Assembly: GCA_017452475.1 (NCBI GenBank) | Contig: JAFTMJ010000003.1 | Span: 1-63,653 of the forward strand | Length of the DNA: 63,653 nt | Direction of reading: 5' to 3' | From: Clostridia bacterium | Lineage (GTDB): Bacteria > Bacillota > Clostridia > Oscillospirales > CAG-272 | Part shown: piece by piece, positions 4,151 through 57,318 of the stretch | Position numbering within the stretch: the first letter of the stretch is position 1 | Layout of the letters: every line of letters starts with the position of its first letter | Program-made: the position numbers and the translations under genes | Notes under the pieces: generated by a model | Told to the model about the DNA's origin: nothing | What the model saw: only the letters and a program-made list of their open reading frames with translations | Database searches by the model: none

Positions 4151-4762
4151 TTATTCAATTTTCTCAAAATCGGTGGCGCCGTGCTTGCAAATTGGGCAAA
4201 TGAAGTCATCGGGCAGGGTGTCACTTTCGTGAACATAACCGCATATTTTACACACATACCCTTTCTTTTTCTCCTGCTTCTTAGGCTTTACATTCTGGTG
4301 GTAGTAGTCATAGGTCATGCTTGGTTCATCCCCCATATGGGTTGCCTCGGTAACCTTGCAAATGAAAAGACCGTGAGAGCCTAAATCCACATATTCTAAA
4401 ACCTCAAGAGAGAAGAACGCATTTACAATCTCACCGGAAAGCACCGCCAAGCCGTTTTGGCTTTTCCAGTGGAACACATCCTTAAACTTGTCATTATCCT
4501 TGCCGCTTTGAAAGCCGAAATTTTTAAAAATGTCAAAGGGAGTGTCTGTATTTAAACAGTTTACATTCATTTTCCCCGTGCTTTTAATAACATCGTGGGA
4601 GTAGTTTTGCTTGCTGATTGATACACTTAAGGTAAGTGGAGTGCTTGATTGTTGAACAACCGTGTTTACAATTAACCCATTGTCCTTTTCTCCGTCATTA
4701 CAGGTGACAACATAAAGCCCGTAGCTTATCTTAAAAAGTGAAGCATTATCAAATTTTTCCAT
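4151..4762 (-). CDS. Flavin reductase domain protein with C-terminal rubredoxin-like domain
   Basis: SYGLYVVT, NGLIVNT, DLGSHGLFI flavin-reductase motifs; CKICG...CPIC tail; start set at MEKFD with AGGAG RBS. Confidence 0.85.
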   Translation of the reverse strand: MEKFDNASLFKISYGLYVVTCNDGEKDNGLIVNTVVQQSSTPLTLSVSISKQNYSHDVIKSTGKMNVNCLNTDTPFDIFKNFGFQSGKDNDKFKDVFHWKSQNGLAVLSGEIVNAFFSLEVLEYVDLGSHGLFICKVTEATHMGDEPSMTYDYYHQNVKPKKQEKKKGYVCKICGYVHESDTLPDDFICPICKHGATDFEKIE

Positions 4763-50477: not shown

Positions 50478-51308
50478 ATGACAAAAAAGAGCTTTATGCA
50501 AAAGGCGGCCGCTGCCCCCCACGTTGTTTGGGCGGTGCTGTTCATAATAGCTCCCTTGATATTTGTTGTTTATTATGCCTTTACCGACAAGGACGGTGCA
50601 TTTACCTTTAGCAATATTACCGAGCTTATGCAGGCAAGCTACCTTGAAATCTTTTTAAGGAGCCTTTGCTTCGCCTTCTTAGCAACGGTTATTTGCTTGA
50701 TTATTGCATATCCAATTGCGTATTTTATGGCTAAGGCAAAGCCAAAAACCCAAAAAATACTTATAATGCTTGTTATGCTGCCACAGTGGCTCAACTTCCT
50801 AATCCGCACCTATTCTTGGATGGCGCTTTTGGAGGACACAGGCATTATCAACTCTATTTTGGGTGTTTTCGGCATCGACCCCATACATATGATAAACACA
50901 TCGGGAGCCGTTATTTTGGGTATGGTATATAACTACCTGCCTTATATGATTATTCCACTTCATTCCGTTATAAGCAAGATCGACCCTAAGCTCTTAGAGG
51001 CGGCGGCTGACCTTGGCTGTAGCCCCTTAAAGGTTATAACAAAGGTGGTTTTGCCACTTAGCGTTTCGGGCATTATTTCGGGTGTAACAATGGTGTTCGT
51101 TCCGTCAATCAGTACCTTCTACATTTCACAAAAGCTTGGCGGAGGTAACTTTGACCTAATCGGTGATACCATTGAAAGGCAGTTCCAAACCGCCTACAAC
51201 TATAACCTCGGTGCCGCTATGTCCTTTGTGCTTATGCTGATTATTATTGTCAGCATGGCAATAATGAACAGGTACTCAGGTGAGGATGACGGGGGTGTTA
51301 TAGTATGA
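50478..51308 (+). CDS. potB: Spermidine/putrescine ABC permease
   Basis: LIRTYSW, YNYLPYMI, EAAADLG. Confidence 0.92.
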   Translation: MTKKSFMQKAAAAPHVVWAVLFIIAPLIFVVYYAFTDKDGAFTFSNITELMQASYLEIFLRSLCFAFLATVICLIIAYPIAYFMAKAKPKTQKILIMLVMLPQWLNFLIRTYSWMALLEDTGIINSILGVFGIDPIHMINTSGAVILGMVYNYLPYMIIPLHSVISKIDPKLLEAAADLGCSPLKVITKVVLPLSVSGIISGVTMVFVPSISTFYISQKLGGGNFDLIGDTIERQFQTAYNYNLGAAMSFVLMLIIIVSMAIMNRYSGEDDGGVIV

Positions 51309-53443
51309 AAAAGAGTAAAATCTTCGGTAACATCTATACCGTCCTTGCATTCATCTTTCTGTATATGCCAATTGCGGTTTTGGTAATTTTCTCCTTTAAC
51401 GCATCTGACAGTACAGGAAATATTACAGGCTTTTCACTTAAGTGGTACGGTGAGCTTTTTAGCGATGCCGCCACACTAAACGCACTTAAAAACACGCTTA
51501 TCCTTGCAATTTTGTCCTCCATAATTGCCACCGTTATCGGTACAATGGCATCCTACGGTATTAACAAAATGCAAAATAAGCACATAAAGAGTGCAACTAT
51601 GTCAGTTACAAAAATACCTATGATAAACCCTGAAATCGTTGTAGGTATTTCAATGATGCTTTTGTTCGTGTTCGTTGGCGGCATTGTGGGCTCACAGTCA
51701 AGCCTTGGCTTTGGCACTGTTTTGATTGCCCACATCACCTTCAATTTGCCTTATGTTATACTTTCCGTTTTGCCTAAGTTTAAGCAAATGGACAAGTCAT
51801 TGCCTGAGGCGGCGCAGGACTTAGGCTGTACCCCCCTTCAGTCATTTTTCAAGGTTGAGCTGCCTGCTATTTTGCCGGGTGTTGTTTCGGGCTTGATTAT
51901 GGCATTTACCTTATCCCTTGACGACTTTGTTATAAGCTATTTCACAATAGGCAGCGGCTTTGAAACCTTACCTATCAGAATTTACTCAATGACAAAGAAG
52001 CGCGTTACTCCCGATATGTACGCCCTGTCAACACTTATCTTTGTGTCTATCCTTGTTCTTTTACTCATCTCCAACCTTACCTCTGACAAGAGCAGAGAAA
52101 AGATGTCCAAAAAGGCAAAGAAGATAACCAAAATAGTTGTTGGCTCCCTCTTTGGTGTGATTGCGGCTGTTACAATCGTAGTGTTTATCGTTTCCGCCTC
52201 CACAGAAACCCTTACCCTTAATGTATATAACTGGGGTGAGTATATTTCCGACGGCGGTGAGGACACCCTGGATGTTAACCAAAAATTCGAGGAGTATTAT
52301 GAGGATTGGTACTTCAAAAAGTATAATAAGCGCGTTAAGGTTAACGTAAATTACACAACCTATGCAAGCAACGAGGATTTGTACGCAAAAATCAAAAGCG
52401 GCGCGGCGGATTACGATATTATCGTTCCCTCCGACTATATGGTTGAGCGACTTAAGTCCGAAGGACTTTTGCAGACTATTGACTTAAGCAAAATCCCCAA
52501 CTATGAAAATATTTCGGAGCAGTTTAGAAACCCCTATTACGATAACGGAAAAGAGAAGTACTCCGTTATGTATACCTACGGTATTGTCGGTATTGTCTAT
52601 AACAAGGACAAGATAAATGATGATGACCTTGCTAAAATCGAGGCAGGTGAGGCAGGCTGGGAGCTTCTTTGGGATGAGGACTACAAGGGTCAAATCCTTC
52701 AGTTCAATAACGCCCGTGACGCCTTCGGCGTTGCTATGTACTCTCTCGGTATTGATGTGAACAACGCAACCGATGCTGAGTGGCAAAAGGCATACGAAAG
52801 GCTTAAGGAGCAAAAGCCATTAGTGCAGAGCTATGTTATGGACGAGATATTTAATAAAATGGAGGGTGGCGAGGCTGCCTTGGCGGCATACTACGCAGGC
52901 GACTGCCTTTCTATGATAGAAAGGGCGGCGGAGGCAGGCGTTAACCTTGGCTTCTACTATCCCAAAACCAACGGTAAATATGTCACCAACATTTTTGCAG
53001 ATGCAATGTGCATTCCAAAGAGCGCCACAAATGTGGAGCTTGCCCACGCGTATATTAACTATATGCTTAGTGAGGAGCCTGCGGTTGCAAATGCGGAATA
53101 CCTGTATTACGGCTCACCAAACAAGCTTGTTGTGAACAACGGGGACTATATTGATTACCTTGGAGATGACTACGGTGTTATATACCAAGAGGAATTTGAG
53201 TCCCAGCTTGATTATATGTTTGAAACCTATGCATACAGGAGCTTGCCCGATGAAAAGCTAAAGCTTCAAAACAACCTATGGGAAACACTTAAGGTTGGCT
53301 CTGATTCCTTCGACAGCGGTATTTATGTCATCTGCGGTGTTATTGCCGCAGTGCTTATCGGCTTTGGCGTATATTGCTACATTATTAAGCGTAAGCGCAG
53401 AAGACTGTATTGGAATACGCAAAAGGAAGCAAGCAAAAAATAA
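51305..53443 (+). CDS. potC: Fusion of PotC permease and PotD binding protein with extra C-terminal TM
   Basis: FLYMPI, AHITF, EAAQDLG, TLSLDDF; then LNVYNWGEYI, SNEDLY, YDIIVPSDY; final TM followed by KRKRRR. Confidence 0.9.
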   Translation: MKKSKIFGNIYTVLAFIFLYMPIAVLVIFSFNASDSTGNITGFSLKWYGELFSDAATLNALKNTLILAILSSIIATVIGTMASYGINKMQNKHIKSATMSVTKIPMINPEIVVGISMMLLFVFVGGIVGSQSSLGFGTVLIAHITFNLPYVILSVLPKFKQMDKSLPEAAQDLGCTPLQSFFKVELPAILPGVVSGLIMAFTLSLDDFVISYFTIGSGFETLPIRIYSMTKKRVTPDMYALSTLIFVSILVLLLISNLTSDKSREKMSKKAKKITKIVVGSLFGVIAAVTIVVFIVSASTETLTLNVYNWGEYISDGGEDTLDVNQKFEEYYEDWYFKKYNKRVKVNVNYTTYASNEDLYAKIKSGAADYDIIVPSDYMVERLKSEGLLQTIDLSKIPNYENISEQFRNPYYDNGKEKYSVMYTYGIVGIVYNKDKINDDDLAKIEAGEAGWELLWDEDYKGQILQFNNARDAFGVAMYSLGIDVNNATDAEWQKAYERLKEQKPLVQSYVMDEIFNKMEGGEAALAAYYAGDCLSMIERAAEAGVNLGFYYPKTNGKYVTNIFADAMCIPKSATNVELAHAYINYMLSEEPAVANAEYLYYGSPNKLVVNNGDYIDYLGDDYGVIYQEEFESQLDYMFETYAYRSLPDEKLKLQNNLWETLKVGSDSFDSGIYVICGVIAAVLIGFGVYCYIIKRKRRRLYWNTQKEASKK

Positions 53444-53449
53444 TACTTT

Positions 53450-53492
53450 CCCCCAAGCTATCCAAGCGGTAGCTTGGGGCTTTCTTTTTTTA
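53450..53492 (+). terminator. pot operon terminator
   Basis: CCCCAAGCTA-N9-TAGCTTGGGG followed by T-rich tract. Confidence 0.75.
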
Positions 53493-53496
53493 CTTG

Positions 53497-53578
53497 ATTT
53501 CGCTTGAACGAAGGGAGAATAAAACAAATATTTCGCTTGAACGAAAATATAATCTGTTGCAAATTTCGCTTGAACGAA
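53497..53578. repeat. Three identical 16-bp direct repeats at exact 33-bp period
   Basis: ATTTCGCTTGAACGAA at 53497, 53530, 53563; unique 17-bp spacers. Confidence 0.95.
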
Positions 53579-53782
53579 GCGCATAAGCGCCGAAAAATAA
53601 AGCTCTTTCCGCCTTTTGCCTTTACGGCATATACCAAAACCGTAAAAAAAGTACAGATGTATGTAGCCTGATACGTACATCGTTGGTACAAAAAAATATG
53701 GACAAAAAAACCGTTTTGGGGTGGTGTTTTTTCACCGAGATTTCCTGTATAATCTTATCAGTAAGCAAGAAAGGAGAGCCTT

Positions 53783-54097
53783 ATGAAAACGGTAAAGGAT
53801 GGCGATCTTTACAGGGTTGTTGAGCTGTACGGAAAAAGCTTTGAGCTTCGGTACGGCTACTACGAGGAGTACGAAAGGGAAAAATGCGACCCCGTCCCCA
53901 TATATCCCGATTTTAGAAAAAGTCCGGTATATACAAATGAAGGCTTTCCCTTCGTTACCCAAATGCAGGAGCTGTGTCAGCACGGCGAGAGCAGATTTGA
54001 GGATGGGTGCTGTGTAGATTGCAGGTATTTTGAAAACGGGGAAGAGCTGATAGGAATTTGTAAGAGCCCCAAAAACAAAAAGCATATAATGAAATAG
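53783..54097 (+). CDS. Small Cys-rich hypothetical protein
   Basis: 104 aa, AAGGAG RBS, GYYEEYE, PIYPDF, C-x-H...CC-x2-C...C. Confidence 0.8.
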   Translation: MKTVKDGDLYRVVELYGKSFELRYGYYEEYEREKCDPVPIYPDFRKSPVYTNEGFPFVTQMQELCQHGESRFEDGCCVDCRYFENGEELIGICKSPKNKKHIMK

Positions 54098-54121: not shown

Positions 54122-57100
54122 ATGGAAAACAGGCTTACAAGAATATTTAAGATAATGGTGGCAATGCTGGCAATTCTTTTGCTCGGCGTAATTGGCGGCT
54201 TCCTTACAACAGTCGGTGCGGAGGAGCTTCCCGAGGGCACCTTAATAGTAGAAACCGAAAACAAAAAAACATACGTTTTCTCTCCTGACGGATATAAAGC
54301 CGAGAATGAGGCGTTCGTGTCCCATACAGGACCGTATCTAATCTACGGTGAGGCAAGCCGTGATATTAGCTTTACCTCAAGCGGCGGTGAGCCCGTAACC
54401 TACGATGTTATATTTCACACATGGACGGCATGGGCGGAAGAATGGTACGGAATTTTTGGTGTTGAAACAGGGGTTACATTAAACATAACCGTGTACGGAA
54501 GCTGTACTTTAAAAGGCTTTAATCATCCGGGAATTTCCGTAGGAGAAAGGCATGTGGGGGCTTCTATGCCTGTTGTTAACTTCACAATCGCGGAGAACAG
54601 CTCCATTACAATTGGAAACCAATATTATGAAACAGAAACGTGTGTTGCAGACGGCGTTGAGATTAGTATAAACGGTGAAGCAACCTCCAGCTTGGACTTG
54701 AGTAGCAGTGATTGGCGCAACAATACAACTCTTGTGCTTTCAAGGGGCGAGAAAACCGGCCACAAAACGGTATATAGCTATGTGGATGATGCAACCTGTA
54801 GAATGACCTGTGATAGCTGTGATTGGGTTGCCAAGGATGTTAATCACCAAATCGAAAACCTTGCCTTGGAGTCCACAGATGAAAATTATGGGCTAAAGCA
54901 TGCGGCAAAATGTGTAATGTGCGGTCATGTTTACTTTGTTGAGAATCACAGTATTAGGTATAATACCAATGAGCAACAGCACATTGCATATTGCAATGAT
55001 TGCAATTACTTCGAGAATTTTACTGACCATACATTTGACAGTACAGGCTGTACTGTGTGCGGCATTACGTACATTGCCGAGCATACAGTTGATGGGGAGG
55101 CAACAAAATATCTTACGATTGATGCATTAACTGAGGTGGTAAAGGAAAAGGGCGGATTAGTTACTCTTCTTAAGAATATAGAAGAACATTACTATGAATT
55201 TGAAGCAGACACAACTAATCTTGTAATCGATTTGGCAGGGTATAAGCTTAGCGGCGTTAATATGGAAGTAGCAGTTGGCGGCTCCATAAAAGTGATAGAT
55301 TCCTCTCAAGCCAAAACAGGAATGCTGATAGGAAGAGGTTATTACAATAATAACATAGAAGGAGAACTCATAATAGATGGCGTAACTTTGGAAAATATCG
55401 CAATTCGTGTACAAAACGGGGGAAGAACTACGCTTTCTAATGCTATACTTAATGACAAATGCATCTTAGTTATGAGTGACGGCTTGTCAATTGTAATTAC
55501 AAATGTTACCTCCAACGGTGAGCTTGAAATTAGTATAAATGCAAGGGAAAATAAAGGAGTAAAAATAGTCAGCGGCGCATTTAAAAAGCTTAAAACTGTA
55601 AATCCGTACGGTCAAAATATATCCGTAAATACGCTTCTTGAAGCGGGTTATGCGTTTGCGGGCGAAAACGGCATTCTTGACGGTTCAAAAGACACCATAA
55701 GCAATGTTACCGCAATAGTTTCCCACGGTGAGCATACTATAGATTCATATCATAACGATGTGGGAACCCACTGGGTAGGCTGCAGCTGCGGATATGCTGA
55801 AGAAAATGTGGAAAAGGAAGCTCACTCAATGAACGAAAGCAACATTTGTCCCGTGTGCAAAGCTGAGATTGAGGCATTGGTTGTTGGCGGTGAAGACGTA
55901 AAATATTTTACAACCGTTAAAGGTGCGGTAGATTATGCAAACACCGTGGCAGTGGCGGAGGTTAGGCTATGCCGTGATGCCACATTTGATCAATTATATA
56001 TTAGAAGCAATATAACCTTGGAGCTTAATAATCATAAATTAACATCAACTGTTGACAGGATATATGTTTACGGCAGGCTTGGGATTATAGATAAGAGTGA
56101 AGGAAAGCAAGGCGGCATCTATGCCAAAAGTGAAGACGGCTATATCATAAATGTTTATGACAAAGCGCAGCTTAGAGTAGTTAACGTAGAAGTGTCAGGA
56201 ATTATTCACTCACCCACCGCTGAGGAAGGAATTTTGATAGAAATTTCAGGTGGCAAATTTACAGGCGCAAATAAATTCAGACTTGGCGATGGCACAAAGC
56301 TGCACATTTCAGGTGGCTTGTTTGAATGTAAAGAGTCGGTAATAGATTTGGGCTGGGGCTCGAGAATTGAGCTTGTAATCACAGGCGGAGAATTTAAAAA
56401 CTGCACTATTCTGGGCAGGTACGATGAAGAAACAAGCTCCTTTGATTTTGACGGAATTTTGAGCAATGTCGGCAATTGTAAAATTTTTATAATCACAGAA
56501 AACGGCACGAGAGTTACATTTGATGACATAACTAAGTACTACGAGGGAACAATGCTCGTAGCACACGAAATGTATGTGTTGAAAAAGGACGAGAAGTGCC
56601 ATTATTATGAATGTACAGAATGTGAAATTATGCTATCAAGCATGCTTGAGCATACCCCGTCATACGCACTGTCACAGGAGGATGCGTCATTGCATACCGC
56701 CGAATGTGCAATATGCAAATTTGATATGGGCACAAGTGAGCATAGCGGCGGCACAGCAACCTGTACAGAGGGCGCGGTGTGTCAGCATTGTAATACCATA
56801 TACAGTGAGCCGCAGGGTCATAAATACGATAATGCCTGCGATGCTGAGTGTAACAATTGTGGAAATACGCGTCAAACAAGCCATAATTATGATAATGCGT
56901 GTGATACCGTGTGTAACAAATGCGGCGCAACACGAAAAGTGAGCCACAAGTATGATAAAGACGGTAAGTGTACAGTGTGCGGCGCCACAGGCGGCAATGC
57001 ACCCGCATCTGAAATCGGTACAGGCGCCATAGTCGGCATTGTTCTTGGCTCGACTGCCGTAGGCGGCGGTATAATATTTGCAATTATCTGGTTCATTTTA

Positions 57101-57127
57101 AGAAGAAAAAAACGCCTCTTGAAATAA
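54122..57127 (+). CDS. Large membrane-anchored surface protein with Cys/His repeats
   Basis: N-terminal signal/TM, about 12 H...CxxC/CxC units, beta-rich blocks, C-terminal TM plus RRKKR; AGGAG RBS. Confidence 0.85.
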   Translation: MENRLTRIFKIMVAMLAILLLGVIGGFLTTVGAEELPEGTLIVETENKKTYVFSPDGYKAENEAFVSHTGPYLIYGEASRDISFTSSGGEPVTYDVIFHTWTAWAEEWYGIFGVETGVTLNITVYGSCTLKGFNHPGISVGERHVGASMPVVNFTIAENSSITIGNQYYETETCVADGVEISINGEATSSLDLSSSDWRNNTTLVLSRGEKTGHKTVYSYVDDATCRMTCDSCDWVAKDVNHQIENLALESTDENYGLKHAAKCVMCGHVYFVENHSIRYNTNEQQHIAYCNDCNYFENFTDHTFDSTGCTVCGITYIAEHTVDGEATKYLTIDALTEVVKEKGGLVTLLKNIEEHYYEFEADTTNLVIDLAGYKLSGVNMEVAVGGSIKVIDSSQAKTGMLIGRGYYNNNIEGELIIDGVTLENIAIRVQNGGRTTLSNAILNDKCILVMSDGLSIVITNVTSNGELEISINARENKGVKIVSGAFKKLKTVNPYGQNISVNTLLEAGYAFAGENGILDGSKDTISNVTAIVSHGEHTIDSYHNDVGTHWVGCSCGYAEENVEKEAHSMNESNICPVCKAEIEALVVGGEDVKYFTTVKGAVDYANTVAVAEVRLCRDATFDQLYIRSNITLELNNHKLTSTVDRIYVYGRLGIIDKSEGKQGGIYAKSEDGYIINVYDKAQLRVVNVEVSGIIHSPTAEEGILIEISGGKFTGANKFRLGDGTKLHISGGLFECKESVIDLGWGSRIELVITGGEFKNCTILGRYDEETSSFDFDGILSNVGNCKIFIITENGTRVTFDDITKYYEGTMLVAHEMYVLKKDEKCHYYECTECEIMLSSMLEHTPSYALSQEDASLHTAECAICKFDMGTSEHSGGTATCTEGAVCQHCNTIYSEPQGHKYDNACDAECNNCGNTRQTSHNYDNACDTVCNKCGATRKVSHKYDKDGKCTVCGATGGNAPASEIGTGAIVGIVLGSTAVGGGIIFAIIWFILRRKKRLLK

Positions 57128-57318
57128 TCAGTTTAATTACTCTCCCTAAATGTCCGTAAGGACAAAAAAGACTGTTGCTTTTATGCGGCAGTCTTTTTTA
57201 TTTTACATTTTTCAAAGCTCCTTGAATTTTTACGAAATTTTTACAATATTATTGAAAAATTGCATAATTAATGATATAATGTAATAAAATAGTGCATTTG
57301 CACAAGAAGGAGGAAATT

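Follow-up and report, generated by a model that had tools for sequence, protein, structure and literature searches.

Three phased dyad repeats in a Clostridia genome as likely operator sites of a dual-HTH regulator

Three perfect 16-bp repeats set at an exact 33-bp period in the genome of a Clostridia bacterium are likely to be the operator sites of a 404-aa regulator that carries two helix–turn–helix (HTH) domains and whose gene lies on a different contig of this genome. From comparison with related genomes, the regulator appears to govern two genes that follow the repeats, one for a small Cys-rich protein and one for a large surface protein. The repeats lie in a stretch of 63,653 nucleotides (contig JAFTMJ010000003.1 of assembly GCA_017452475.1, positions 1 to 63,653 of the forward strand), which is called the window here. 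An earlier reading of the window from its letters alone (the original prediction) had singled out the array and proposed that it is bound cooperatively by a dimeric protein, either as an activator array or as iteron or recombination sites.

A perfect repeat array beside the pot operon

The 16-mer ATTTCGCTTGAACGAA occurs in three exact copies on the + strand (53497–53512, 53530–53545 and 53563–53578), spaced 33 and 33 bp from start to start, and the starts at 53497, 53530 and 53563 bear out the phase given in the original prediction. The unit can be extended to 17 nt, with G, A and G as the last position in copies 1, 2 and 3, and the 16–17 nt separating the copies are, as had been proposed, unrelated to one another; because these spacers differ, Tandem Repeats Finder did not report the array. 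The internal dyad predicted for each repeat, TTCG-N6-CGAA, is likewise present in all three copies, with true symmetry limited to the outer 4+4 bases and a non-symmetric centre, CTTGAA. Chance cannot account for three identical copies at an unvarying period.

No further copy of ATTTCGCTTGAACGAA was found in the window with up to three mismatches allowed. Elsewhere in the 2.1-Mb genome there is no exact copy and, at up to two mismatches, one unrelated match, and near-matches in relatives fall mostly within coding sequence. The genome scan with the exact 16-mer that had been offered as a check thus came back empty; the informative search motif is the degenerate dyad TTCG-N6-CGAA, which is needed to reach a second locus. 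The array and its surroundings contain the following features.

53451–53491, + strand: intrinsic terminator of the potA-potB-potCD operon, with a 12-bp stem, a 5-nt loop and a T-run
53497–53513, no strand assigned: site O1, ATTTCGCTTGAACGAAG, core dyad 53499–53512
53530–53546, no strand assigned: site O2, ATTTCGCTTGAACGAAA, core 53532–53545, ending 2 nt 5′ of a TATAAT
53548–53553, + strand: TATAAT hexamer in the O2–O3 interval, read from the sequence and compared with relatives
53563–53579, no strand assigned: site O3, ATTTCGCTTGAACGAAG, core 53565–53578
53580–53684, + strand: unique AT-rich spacer with hairpins, 105 bp
53685–53703, + strand: Box A, GGTACAAAAAAATATGGAC, A-rich and conserved 5′ of relatives' Cys-ORF and surface-protein promoters
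53716–53732, + strand: Box B, TTGGGGTGGTG and a T-run, lying roughly −44 to −28 from the likely transcription start
53746–53753, + strand: TG plus TATAAT, a likely −10, conserved in position and sequence at nine target genes
53783–54097, + strand: Cys-rich ORF, 104 aa, cytoplasmic, partner of the regulator gene in relatives
54122–57127, + strand: Cys-rich surface protein, 1001 aa, signal/TM segment at the N terminus, TM anchor at the C terminus
57164–57199, + strand: cassette-closing terminator, with a 15-bp stem and a T-run

The array begins 6 nt past the T-run of the pot-operon terminator, in agreement with its predicted place directly after it, and the stem of that terminator (53451–53479) marks the upstream edge of the cassette. 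The potC-potD fusion gene (51305–53443) joins PotC (permease) and PotD (solute-binding protein) in a single polypeptide of 712 aa, which has a TM segment at its C terminus; the genus retains the fusion, at 708–758 aa in most relatives. Around the array lie the pot transporter genes, the Cys-rich ORF, the surface-protein gene and a permease gene, and the content of the contig is chromosomal. The closest relative (G017) lacks the cassette at this place; a terminator and then a convergently oriented glycosidase gene come after its potCD. The DNA 3′ of potCD in relatives holds unrelated genes and never the permease, and synteny is too poor to define the insertion precisely.

The dyad accompanies a dual-HTH regulator gene

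The regulator came into view through intergenic near-match arrays at 32–33 bp that lie, in two relatives (G017 and G025), directly 5′ of a gene for a ~405-aa protein. The orthologue of that protein in the genome studied here (G000; 86% identity) is the 404-aa product of a minus-strand gene on a different contig (C11, 5043–6257). The original prediction had seen no cognate DNA-binding gene in the window, and this holds, the candidate gene sitting on C11. Across the whole genome TTCG-N6-CGAA occurs at 20 sites and forms two clusters only, the window array and a pair of dyads on C11; the C11 dyads, 32 bp apart, follow a TTGACA-17-TATAAT promoter and precede the regulator gene's RBS.

The regulator has an N-terminal HTH_17 domain of the excisionase/MerR-like winged-helix kind (PF12728, 35.7 bits, above the Pfam cut-off), a middle part of ~270 residues that forms a TPR-like superhelix, and a C-terminal LuxR/GerE HTH (PF00196, 44.2 bits against a cut-off of 23.5). 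A C-terminal four-helix GerE HTH above cut-off is what defines the LuxR/FixJ/GerE family, to which the protein can accordingly be assigned. Its AlphaFold model (pLDDT 87.5) consists of the HTH, TPR-like and HTH parts only. Sequence matches in the PDB were to NarL, VraR and GerE, and Foldseek returned weak TPR matches only (RapF, Rap–Phr, AimR and MalT domain III, 1hz4, E 0.08). Neither Pfam nor NCBIfam finds a P-loop domain in it, and searches of PHROGs and PADLOC gave generic HTH matches only. Just 3′ of the regulator gene, at C11 ~4470–4560 (L020), are an apparent tRNA gene (reverse complement) and repeated GGGAGGGG-type elements; in relatives the Cys-rich ORF occupies this position, which may be a site of rearrangement.

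Phased dyads and the regulator gene occur together across the genus. All 11 same-genus orthologues (64–86% identity) have two to four dyads at 32–35 bp 5′ of the gene, and phased pairs, defined as two dyads 15–23 bp apart, are found in 12/12 genus genomes with an orthologue and in 0/25 without (Fisher's exact test, p = 5e-10). One genome of another genus (G056) has a single isolated dyad pair, whose gap of 22 nt is longer than that of any other pair.

A scan of species-representative genomes extended the comparison to 344 relatives, all of them in uncultured Clostridia-type metagenome-assembled genomes (MAGs), largely from ruminant hindguts; locus statistics are for the best 80 of the 344, with 78 upstream regions counted. 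In this set, 63 of the 78 loci have at least two strict dyads and 76 have at least one site, at spacings of 31–36 bp, with 33 bp in 55 of 95 intervals. Because sites were defined by the strict dyad, the invariance of TTCG and CGAA is partly circular; the presence/absence test is free of that circularity, and so is an unbiased count of all 4-mer inverted dyads, in which TTCG-N6-CGAA came first, in 75 of the 78 upstream regions. Where a TTGACA-17-TATAAT promoter is recognisable, the first dyad begins 10–13 bp past the −10 (about +5) in nearly all loci, and in seven loci an extra dyad falls exactly within the 17-bp −35/−10 spacer. Conservation between species is restricted to the 4+4 half-sites. 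The features that were looked for in an operator array, namely a motif at the regulator's own promoter, co-occurrence with the regulator, and conserved position and spacing, were all found, and the part of the original prediction that invoked phased sites for a dimeric protein on one helix face gains strong comparative support.

At the corresponding position, paralogous regulators (~50% identity) carry repeated dyads of other sequence, one of them TAGCG-N6-CGCTA with a 25-bp period. Paralogous modules of regulator plus Cys ORF were seen at L036 and L037 (G003:C31 and C34), L032 (G030:C5) and L035 (G003:C40), with G003 holding four such modules in all; GAACGAACAAT repeats are another operator type among them, and L036 has a near-copy of its own operator (GTAATACCGC) at the Box B position. 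Variant half-sites also occur: four sites at exact 33-bp steps stand 5′ of the regulator at L153 (JAZSMG010000149.1), three of them with TTCG-N6-CGTA, and L156 has one TTCG-N6-CGTA site.

Dyads lie upstream of a promoter module without a −35 hexamer

Most regulator-bearing genomes contain one or two additional dyad pairs; as MAGs are incomplete, the absence of secondary sites from some genomes carries little weight. Nine of the ten secondary pairs examined lie 130–180 bp 5′ of a conserved module that fronts a gene for a large Cys-rich lipoprotein (687–1292 aa), and the tenth (G025:C25) is close to the end of its contig, where no gene of that type is visible. Three elements make up the module, namely Box A (GGnCAAAAAAATATGnCC), Box B (TTGGGGTG[G/T]TG) and an extended −10. 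It has no −35 hexamer, and relatives also carry it in the spacer that separates the regulator gene from the Cys ORF. In one sub-clade, two to three dyads at 33 bp lie between the regulator stop codon and the Cys-ORF promoter, like the dyads of the window.

In the window genome the module occurs at 53685–53753 only, and no other Box A or Box B promoter was found. Box B is conserved at every main-clade target promoter, where it stands in place of the −35 hexamer. The TG-TATAAT at 53746–53753, conserved also in relatives' regulator-to-Cys-ORF spacers, is followed 3′ by a conserved nTAnnnGTAA stretch and then an RBS, and is the likely −10 of a promoter for the Cys-rich ORF operon. Box A is a palindrome with covarying arms in relatives, and the right arm in the window (TGGAC) is not complementary to the left. 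The arm pairs differ by species (GGACA/TGTCC, GGGCA/TGCCC, GTGCA/TGCAC and CCGCA/TGCGG) around a conserved A-rich centre, as observed at 53685–53703 and in the regulator-to-Cys-ORF spacers of L101, L107, L111, L116, L098, L156 and L147; such covariation suggests a hairpin or a co-evolving binding protein.

The centres of the three window sites lie 176–242 bp upstream of the putative target −10, an unusually long distance. No fixed helical distance separates arrays from target −10 elements, the last site being ~130–180 bp away and varying among targets; with no fixed helical relation to the promoter, activation would need looping or another factor. Between O3 and Box A, the 105-bp spacer is comparable in length to the ~70–115-bp spacers at relatives' target sites. 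It holds a 10-bp stem, perfect with one G–U pair (53656–53665 with 53672–53681), and a 7-bp stem (53621–53627 with 53640–53646), and the RNA fold of 53560–53790 is more stable than that of shuffled sequences (z = −3.0). Judged by these comparisons, the layout of the window array is typical of a working target site.

The genes behind the module are arranged in the window as in relatives, apart from the regulator. The order in G025, G017 and G014 is dyads, regulator, Cys ORF and surface proteins including homologues of the 1001-aa protein; the Cys-rich ORF adjoins the regulator gene in all 11 other genus genomes that have the ORF, and is downstream of it on the same strand in 69 of 76 MAG loci. 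Among 12 genus genomes, G000 is the sole case in which the two are apart. Since the regulator lies elsewhere in this genome only, the window cassette corresponds to the relatives' unit minus the regulator gene.

That separation lends itself to a rival reading, in which the array is a functionless relic: the leftover of an autoregulated promoter after the regulator gene moved, which may still bind the regulator and controls nothing. The segment O2–TATAAT–O3 is indeed in the exact register of autoregulated regulator promoters. O2 starts 22 nt before the end of the hexamer at 53548–53553 and O3 starts 11 nt after it, against −21 and +11–12 in those promoters, and the register of O2 matches that of the in-spacer site of relatives. 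The −35 is lost: ACAAAT stands where a match would lie, and a consensus sigma-70 scan of 53300–53900 found no promoter. By this register the window array probably derived from a regulator-type promoter, and the hexamer may be a vestigial or factor-dependent −10. The spacer at 53580–53684 also lacks a homologue anywhere, a query with 53575–53700 having matched nothing else in the genome or among the loci collected. Against a relic, the three copies are perfect and in exact phase, with no sign of decay, and two to three sites 5′ of a Box A/B promoter are normal at secondary targets and throughout one sub-clade. We regard the relic as improbable.

The Cys-rich protein is a probable partner of the regulator

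The 104-aa Cys-rich protein has no match in Pfam, NCBIfam, PHROGs or PADLOC. Its AlphaFold model (pLDDT 93.2) is mostly beta, and Foldseek found no similar fold among solved structures (best E 2.2). In an alignment of 46 sequences C65, C77, C80 and C93 are invariant, and the protein has neither a signal peptide nor a recognisable DNA-binding motif. The 1001-aa surface protein, without a match in Pfam or NCBIfam, is presumed to be regulated cargo; with the target lipoproteins of G013 and G014 it shares a Cys-repeat of ~90 aa only. Cargo varies by species: large Cys-rich lipoproteins or surface proteins (many CxxC, 687–1292 aa) fall into three or more families with scant relation to one another, and these families (54122–57127 here; L070–L079) follow one shared operator and Box A/B promoter module.

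Natural variation in the two HTH domains bears on which of them contacts the dyad. In one sub-clade the LuxR recognition helix differs (SESMVRF/YLITQ) and the TTCG dyad is retained along with the HTH_17 helix; GTCG-N6-CGAC occupies the promoter spacer of a homologue of 25% identity whose LuxR helix is unrelated; and a paralogue with an altered HTH_17 helix (SHRQVQ) has TAGCG-N6-CGCTA. On balance this variation, drawn from few independent lineages, makes HTH_17 the likelier reader of the dyad. Box B, for its part, differs with the LuxR helix, being TTGGGGTGGTG-like in the SESTVKQ clade and ATAGTGACAA in the SESMVRF/YLITQ clade, which hints, speculatively, that the LuxR HTH reads the promoter-proximal Box B.

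A second rival is a different binder, whether the Cys-rich 104-aa protein, which the original prediction had put forward for an EMSA test, or another transcription factor, with the regulator associated through co-regulation. Co-occurrence with the regulator is as tight for the Cys-rich protein as for the sites, so that presence and absence alone cannot tell the two proteins apart as binders, and its fold has no PDB match. Yet it is mostly beta-strand and shows no recognisable DNA-binding motif, whereas two HTH domains are present in the regulator; a regulator gene with such sites in its own promoter is a textbook sign of autoregulation; and the dyads of paralogues change together with the regulator's HTH_17 helix. 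A different binder seems a shade less probable even than a relic, and the Cys-rich product is better seen as a regulated partner.

The repeats could in principle act as RNA, as UUCG-loop-CGAA hairpins in a leader or as a CRISPR-like or otherwise processed array. Most sites at regulator genes are 3′ of the −10 and hence transcribed, and each unit can form a 4-bp stem. The array nevertheless folds no better than shuffled sequence (z = −0.59), and an Rfam scan at a permissive threshold gave a chance lncRNA match only. Positions 5 and 10 (C and A in the window) are often unpaired, mismatches are common in the pairs just inside them, interspecies conservation is confined to the half-sites, and in seven loci a site lies in the promoter spacer, which is not transcribed. 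Repeats of 16–17 nt with 16–17-nt spacers are also far below CRISPR dimensions (repeats of about 23–47 nt, spacers equally long or longer, and mostly a leader or cas genes), and with three copies and no cas context a CRISPR array was rejected. A role as RNA is very unlikely.

Least probable of all is the iteron or recombination half of the original prediction, which found no support: short phased repeats do border a strain-specific block that is missing after potCD in G017, but no Rep, integrase, invertase or transposase gene occurs in the cassette or next to the related arrays, the motif reads as a palindrome without direction, no AT-rich unwinding element with DnaA boxes adjoins it, PHROGs and PADLOC yield generic HTH matches only, and the related arrays hold fixed promoter positions at chromosomal regulator genes in ~90 loci. 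Site-specific recombination sites were rejected also for their layout, the repeats being tandem and flanking no segment, with no recombinase gene adjoining.

A model for binding and control

In the preferred reading, that of operator sites for the dual-HTH regulator, each TTCG-N6-CGAA dyad of 14 bp would be occupied by one dimer. With 10 bp between their centres, the half-sites would fall in successive major grooves, as fits a symmetric HTH dimer. The 33-bp period, about three helical turns, would bring neighbouring dimers onto one face of the DNA and allow cooperative binding, with dimer–dimer contacts presumably made through the TPR-like domain.

Two settings of the sites are expected to differ in outcome. 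At its own strong promoter the regulator would bind from about +5 onward and, in some species, within the −35/−10 spacer too; sites at +5 to +80 or in the spacer of strong consensus promoters imply autorepression. In the window the array stands 170–250 bp 5′ of the −35-less promoter (Box A, Box B, TG-TATAAT) that would serve the Cys-rich ORF and the 1001-aa protein, and this upstream position would place the operon under the regulator's control. Our best guess is that the array serves there as an upstream activating or loading site, a role favoured by the position of the sites far upstream of a promoter without a −35. For the sign of regulation at the window we would give activation roughly an even chance and consider repression or a roadblock somewhat unlikely. 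The activator array of the original prediction is plausible in this light, but sites at the regulator's own gene occupy repressor-type positions, so activation is not to be assumed.

A bolder scheme, which we hold to be doubtful, combines the two domain assignments in a two-headed bridge. HTH_17 dimers would sit on the array and the LuxR HTH on Box B (about −40), closing a loop of ~130–200 bp that activates the genes for Cys-rich surface proteins, with the Cys-rich protein as a metal- or redox-sensing partner.

Discussion

The regulator resembles several known systems in part. With MalT and other LAL regulators, which bind repeated boxes cooperatively and have a TPR-like sensor domain, it shares a C-terminal GerE-type HTH, a helical-repeat middle (the weak match to 1hz4, E 0.08) and several phased sites per promoter, whereas it lacks the STAND/AAA ATPase, has an extra N-terminal HTH_17 and is only 404 aa long; MalT boxes, too, are asymmetric, in contrast to the symmetric 14-bp dyads at 33 bp found here. 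The absence of an N-terminal STAND/AAA+ NTPase places it outside the MalT/LAL subfamily.

The quorum-sensing RRNPP regulators of Firmicutes (PlcR, NprR, Rap and AimR) offer an N-terminal HTH joined to a TPR-like part, palindromic boxes, autoregulation and a small ORF directly downstream, and the weak structural matches to RapF, Rap–Phr and AimR point the same way. Their HTH, however, is of the XRE type, compared with HTH_17 plus a C-terminal LuxR HTH in our candidate, and their small ORF encodes a secreted pro-peptide, unlike the folded ~100-aa Cys-rich protein without a signal peptide. With HTH_17 and no secreted-peptide gene adjoining, the regulator does not belong to RRNPP.

BldC and Xis, excisionase- or MerR-like binders of the HTH_17 kind, assemble cooperatively on repeated sites. 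The N-terminal HTH_17 recalls them, as do sites within the −35/−10 spacer, where MerR operators lie, and phased sites that suggest oligomers; BldC and Xis are nevertheless small, single-domain proteins on head-to-tail direct repeats, as opposed to inverted dyads and a TPR plus LuxR fusion, and MerR promoter spacers measure 19–20 bp rather than 17 bp. Lambda OR1–3 and OL1–3, tripartite operators of cooperative repressor dimers, are similar in having three near-identical dimer dyads closely spaced at a promoter, with autoregulation, but have a period of ~23–24 bp instead of 33 bp and an unrelated protein family, and the window array lies far upstream. Plasmid iterons have short repeats, a fixed helical phase and a dedicated protein in common with the array; they point in one direction and adjoin an origin and a rep gene, and the window array shows none of these features.

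An operator array is an ordinary kind of element; the regulator and its regulon are an uncharacterised variant, and for the dual-HTH family we found no relevant papers or source names. An orphan repeat is now tied to a specific regulator family, to a Cys-rich protein without a known fold and to large, highly variable Cys-rich surface proteins, all in uncultured Clostridia of ruminant hindguts. If confirmed, the defined operator (TTCG-N6-CGAA at 33 bp) and the promoter module would predict which surface proteins are switched together, and the regulator would offer a simple case in which to study the use of two HTH domains by a single protein. The two-headed bridge, if true, would be an undescribed regulatory module common in uncultured ruminant-gut Clostridia.
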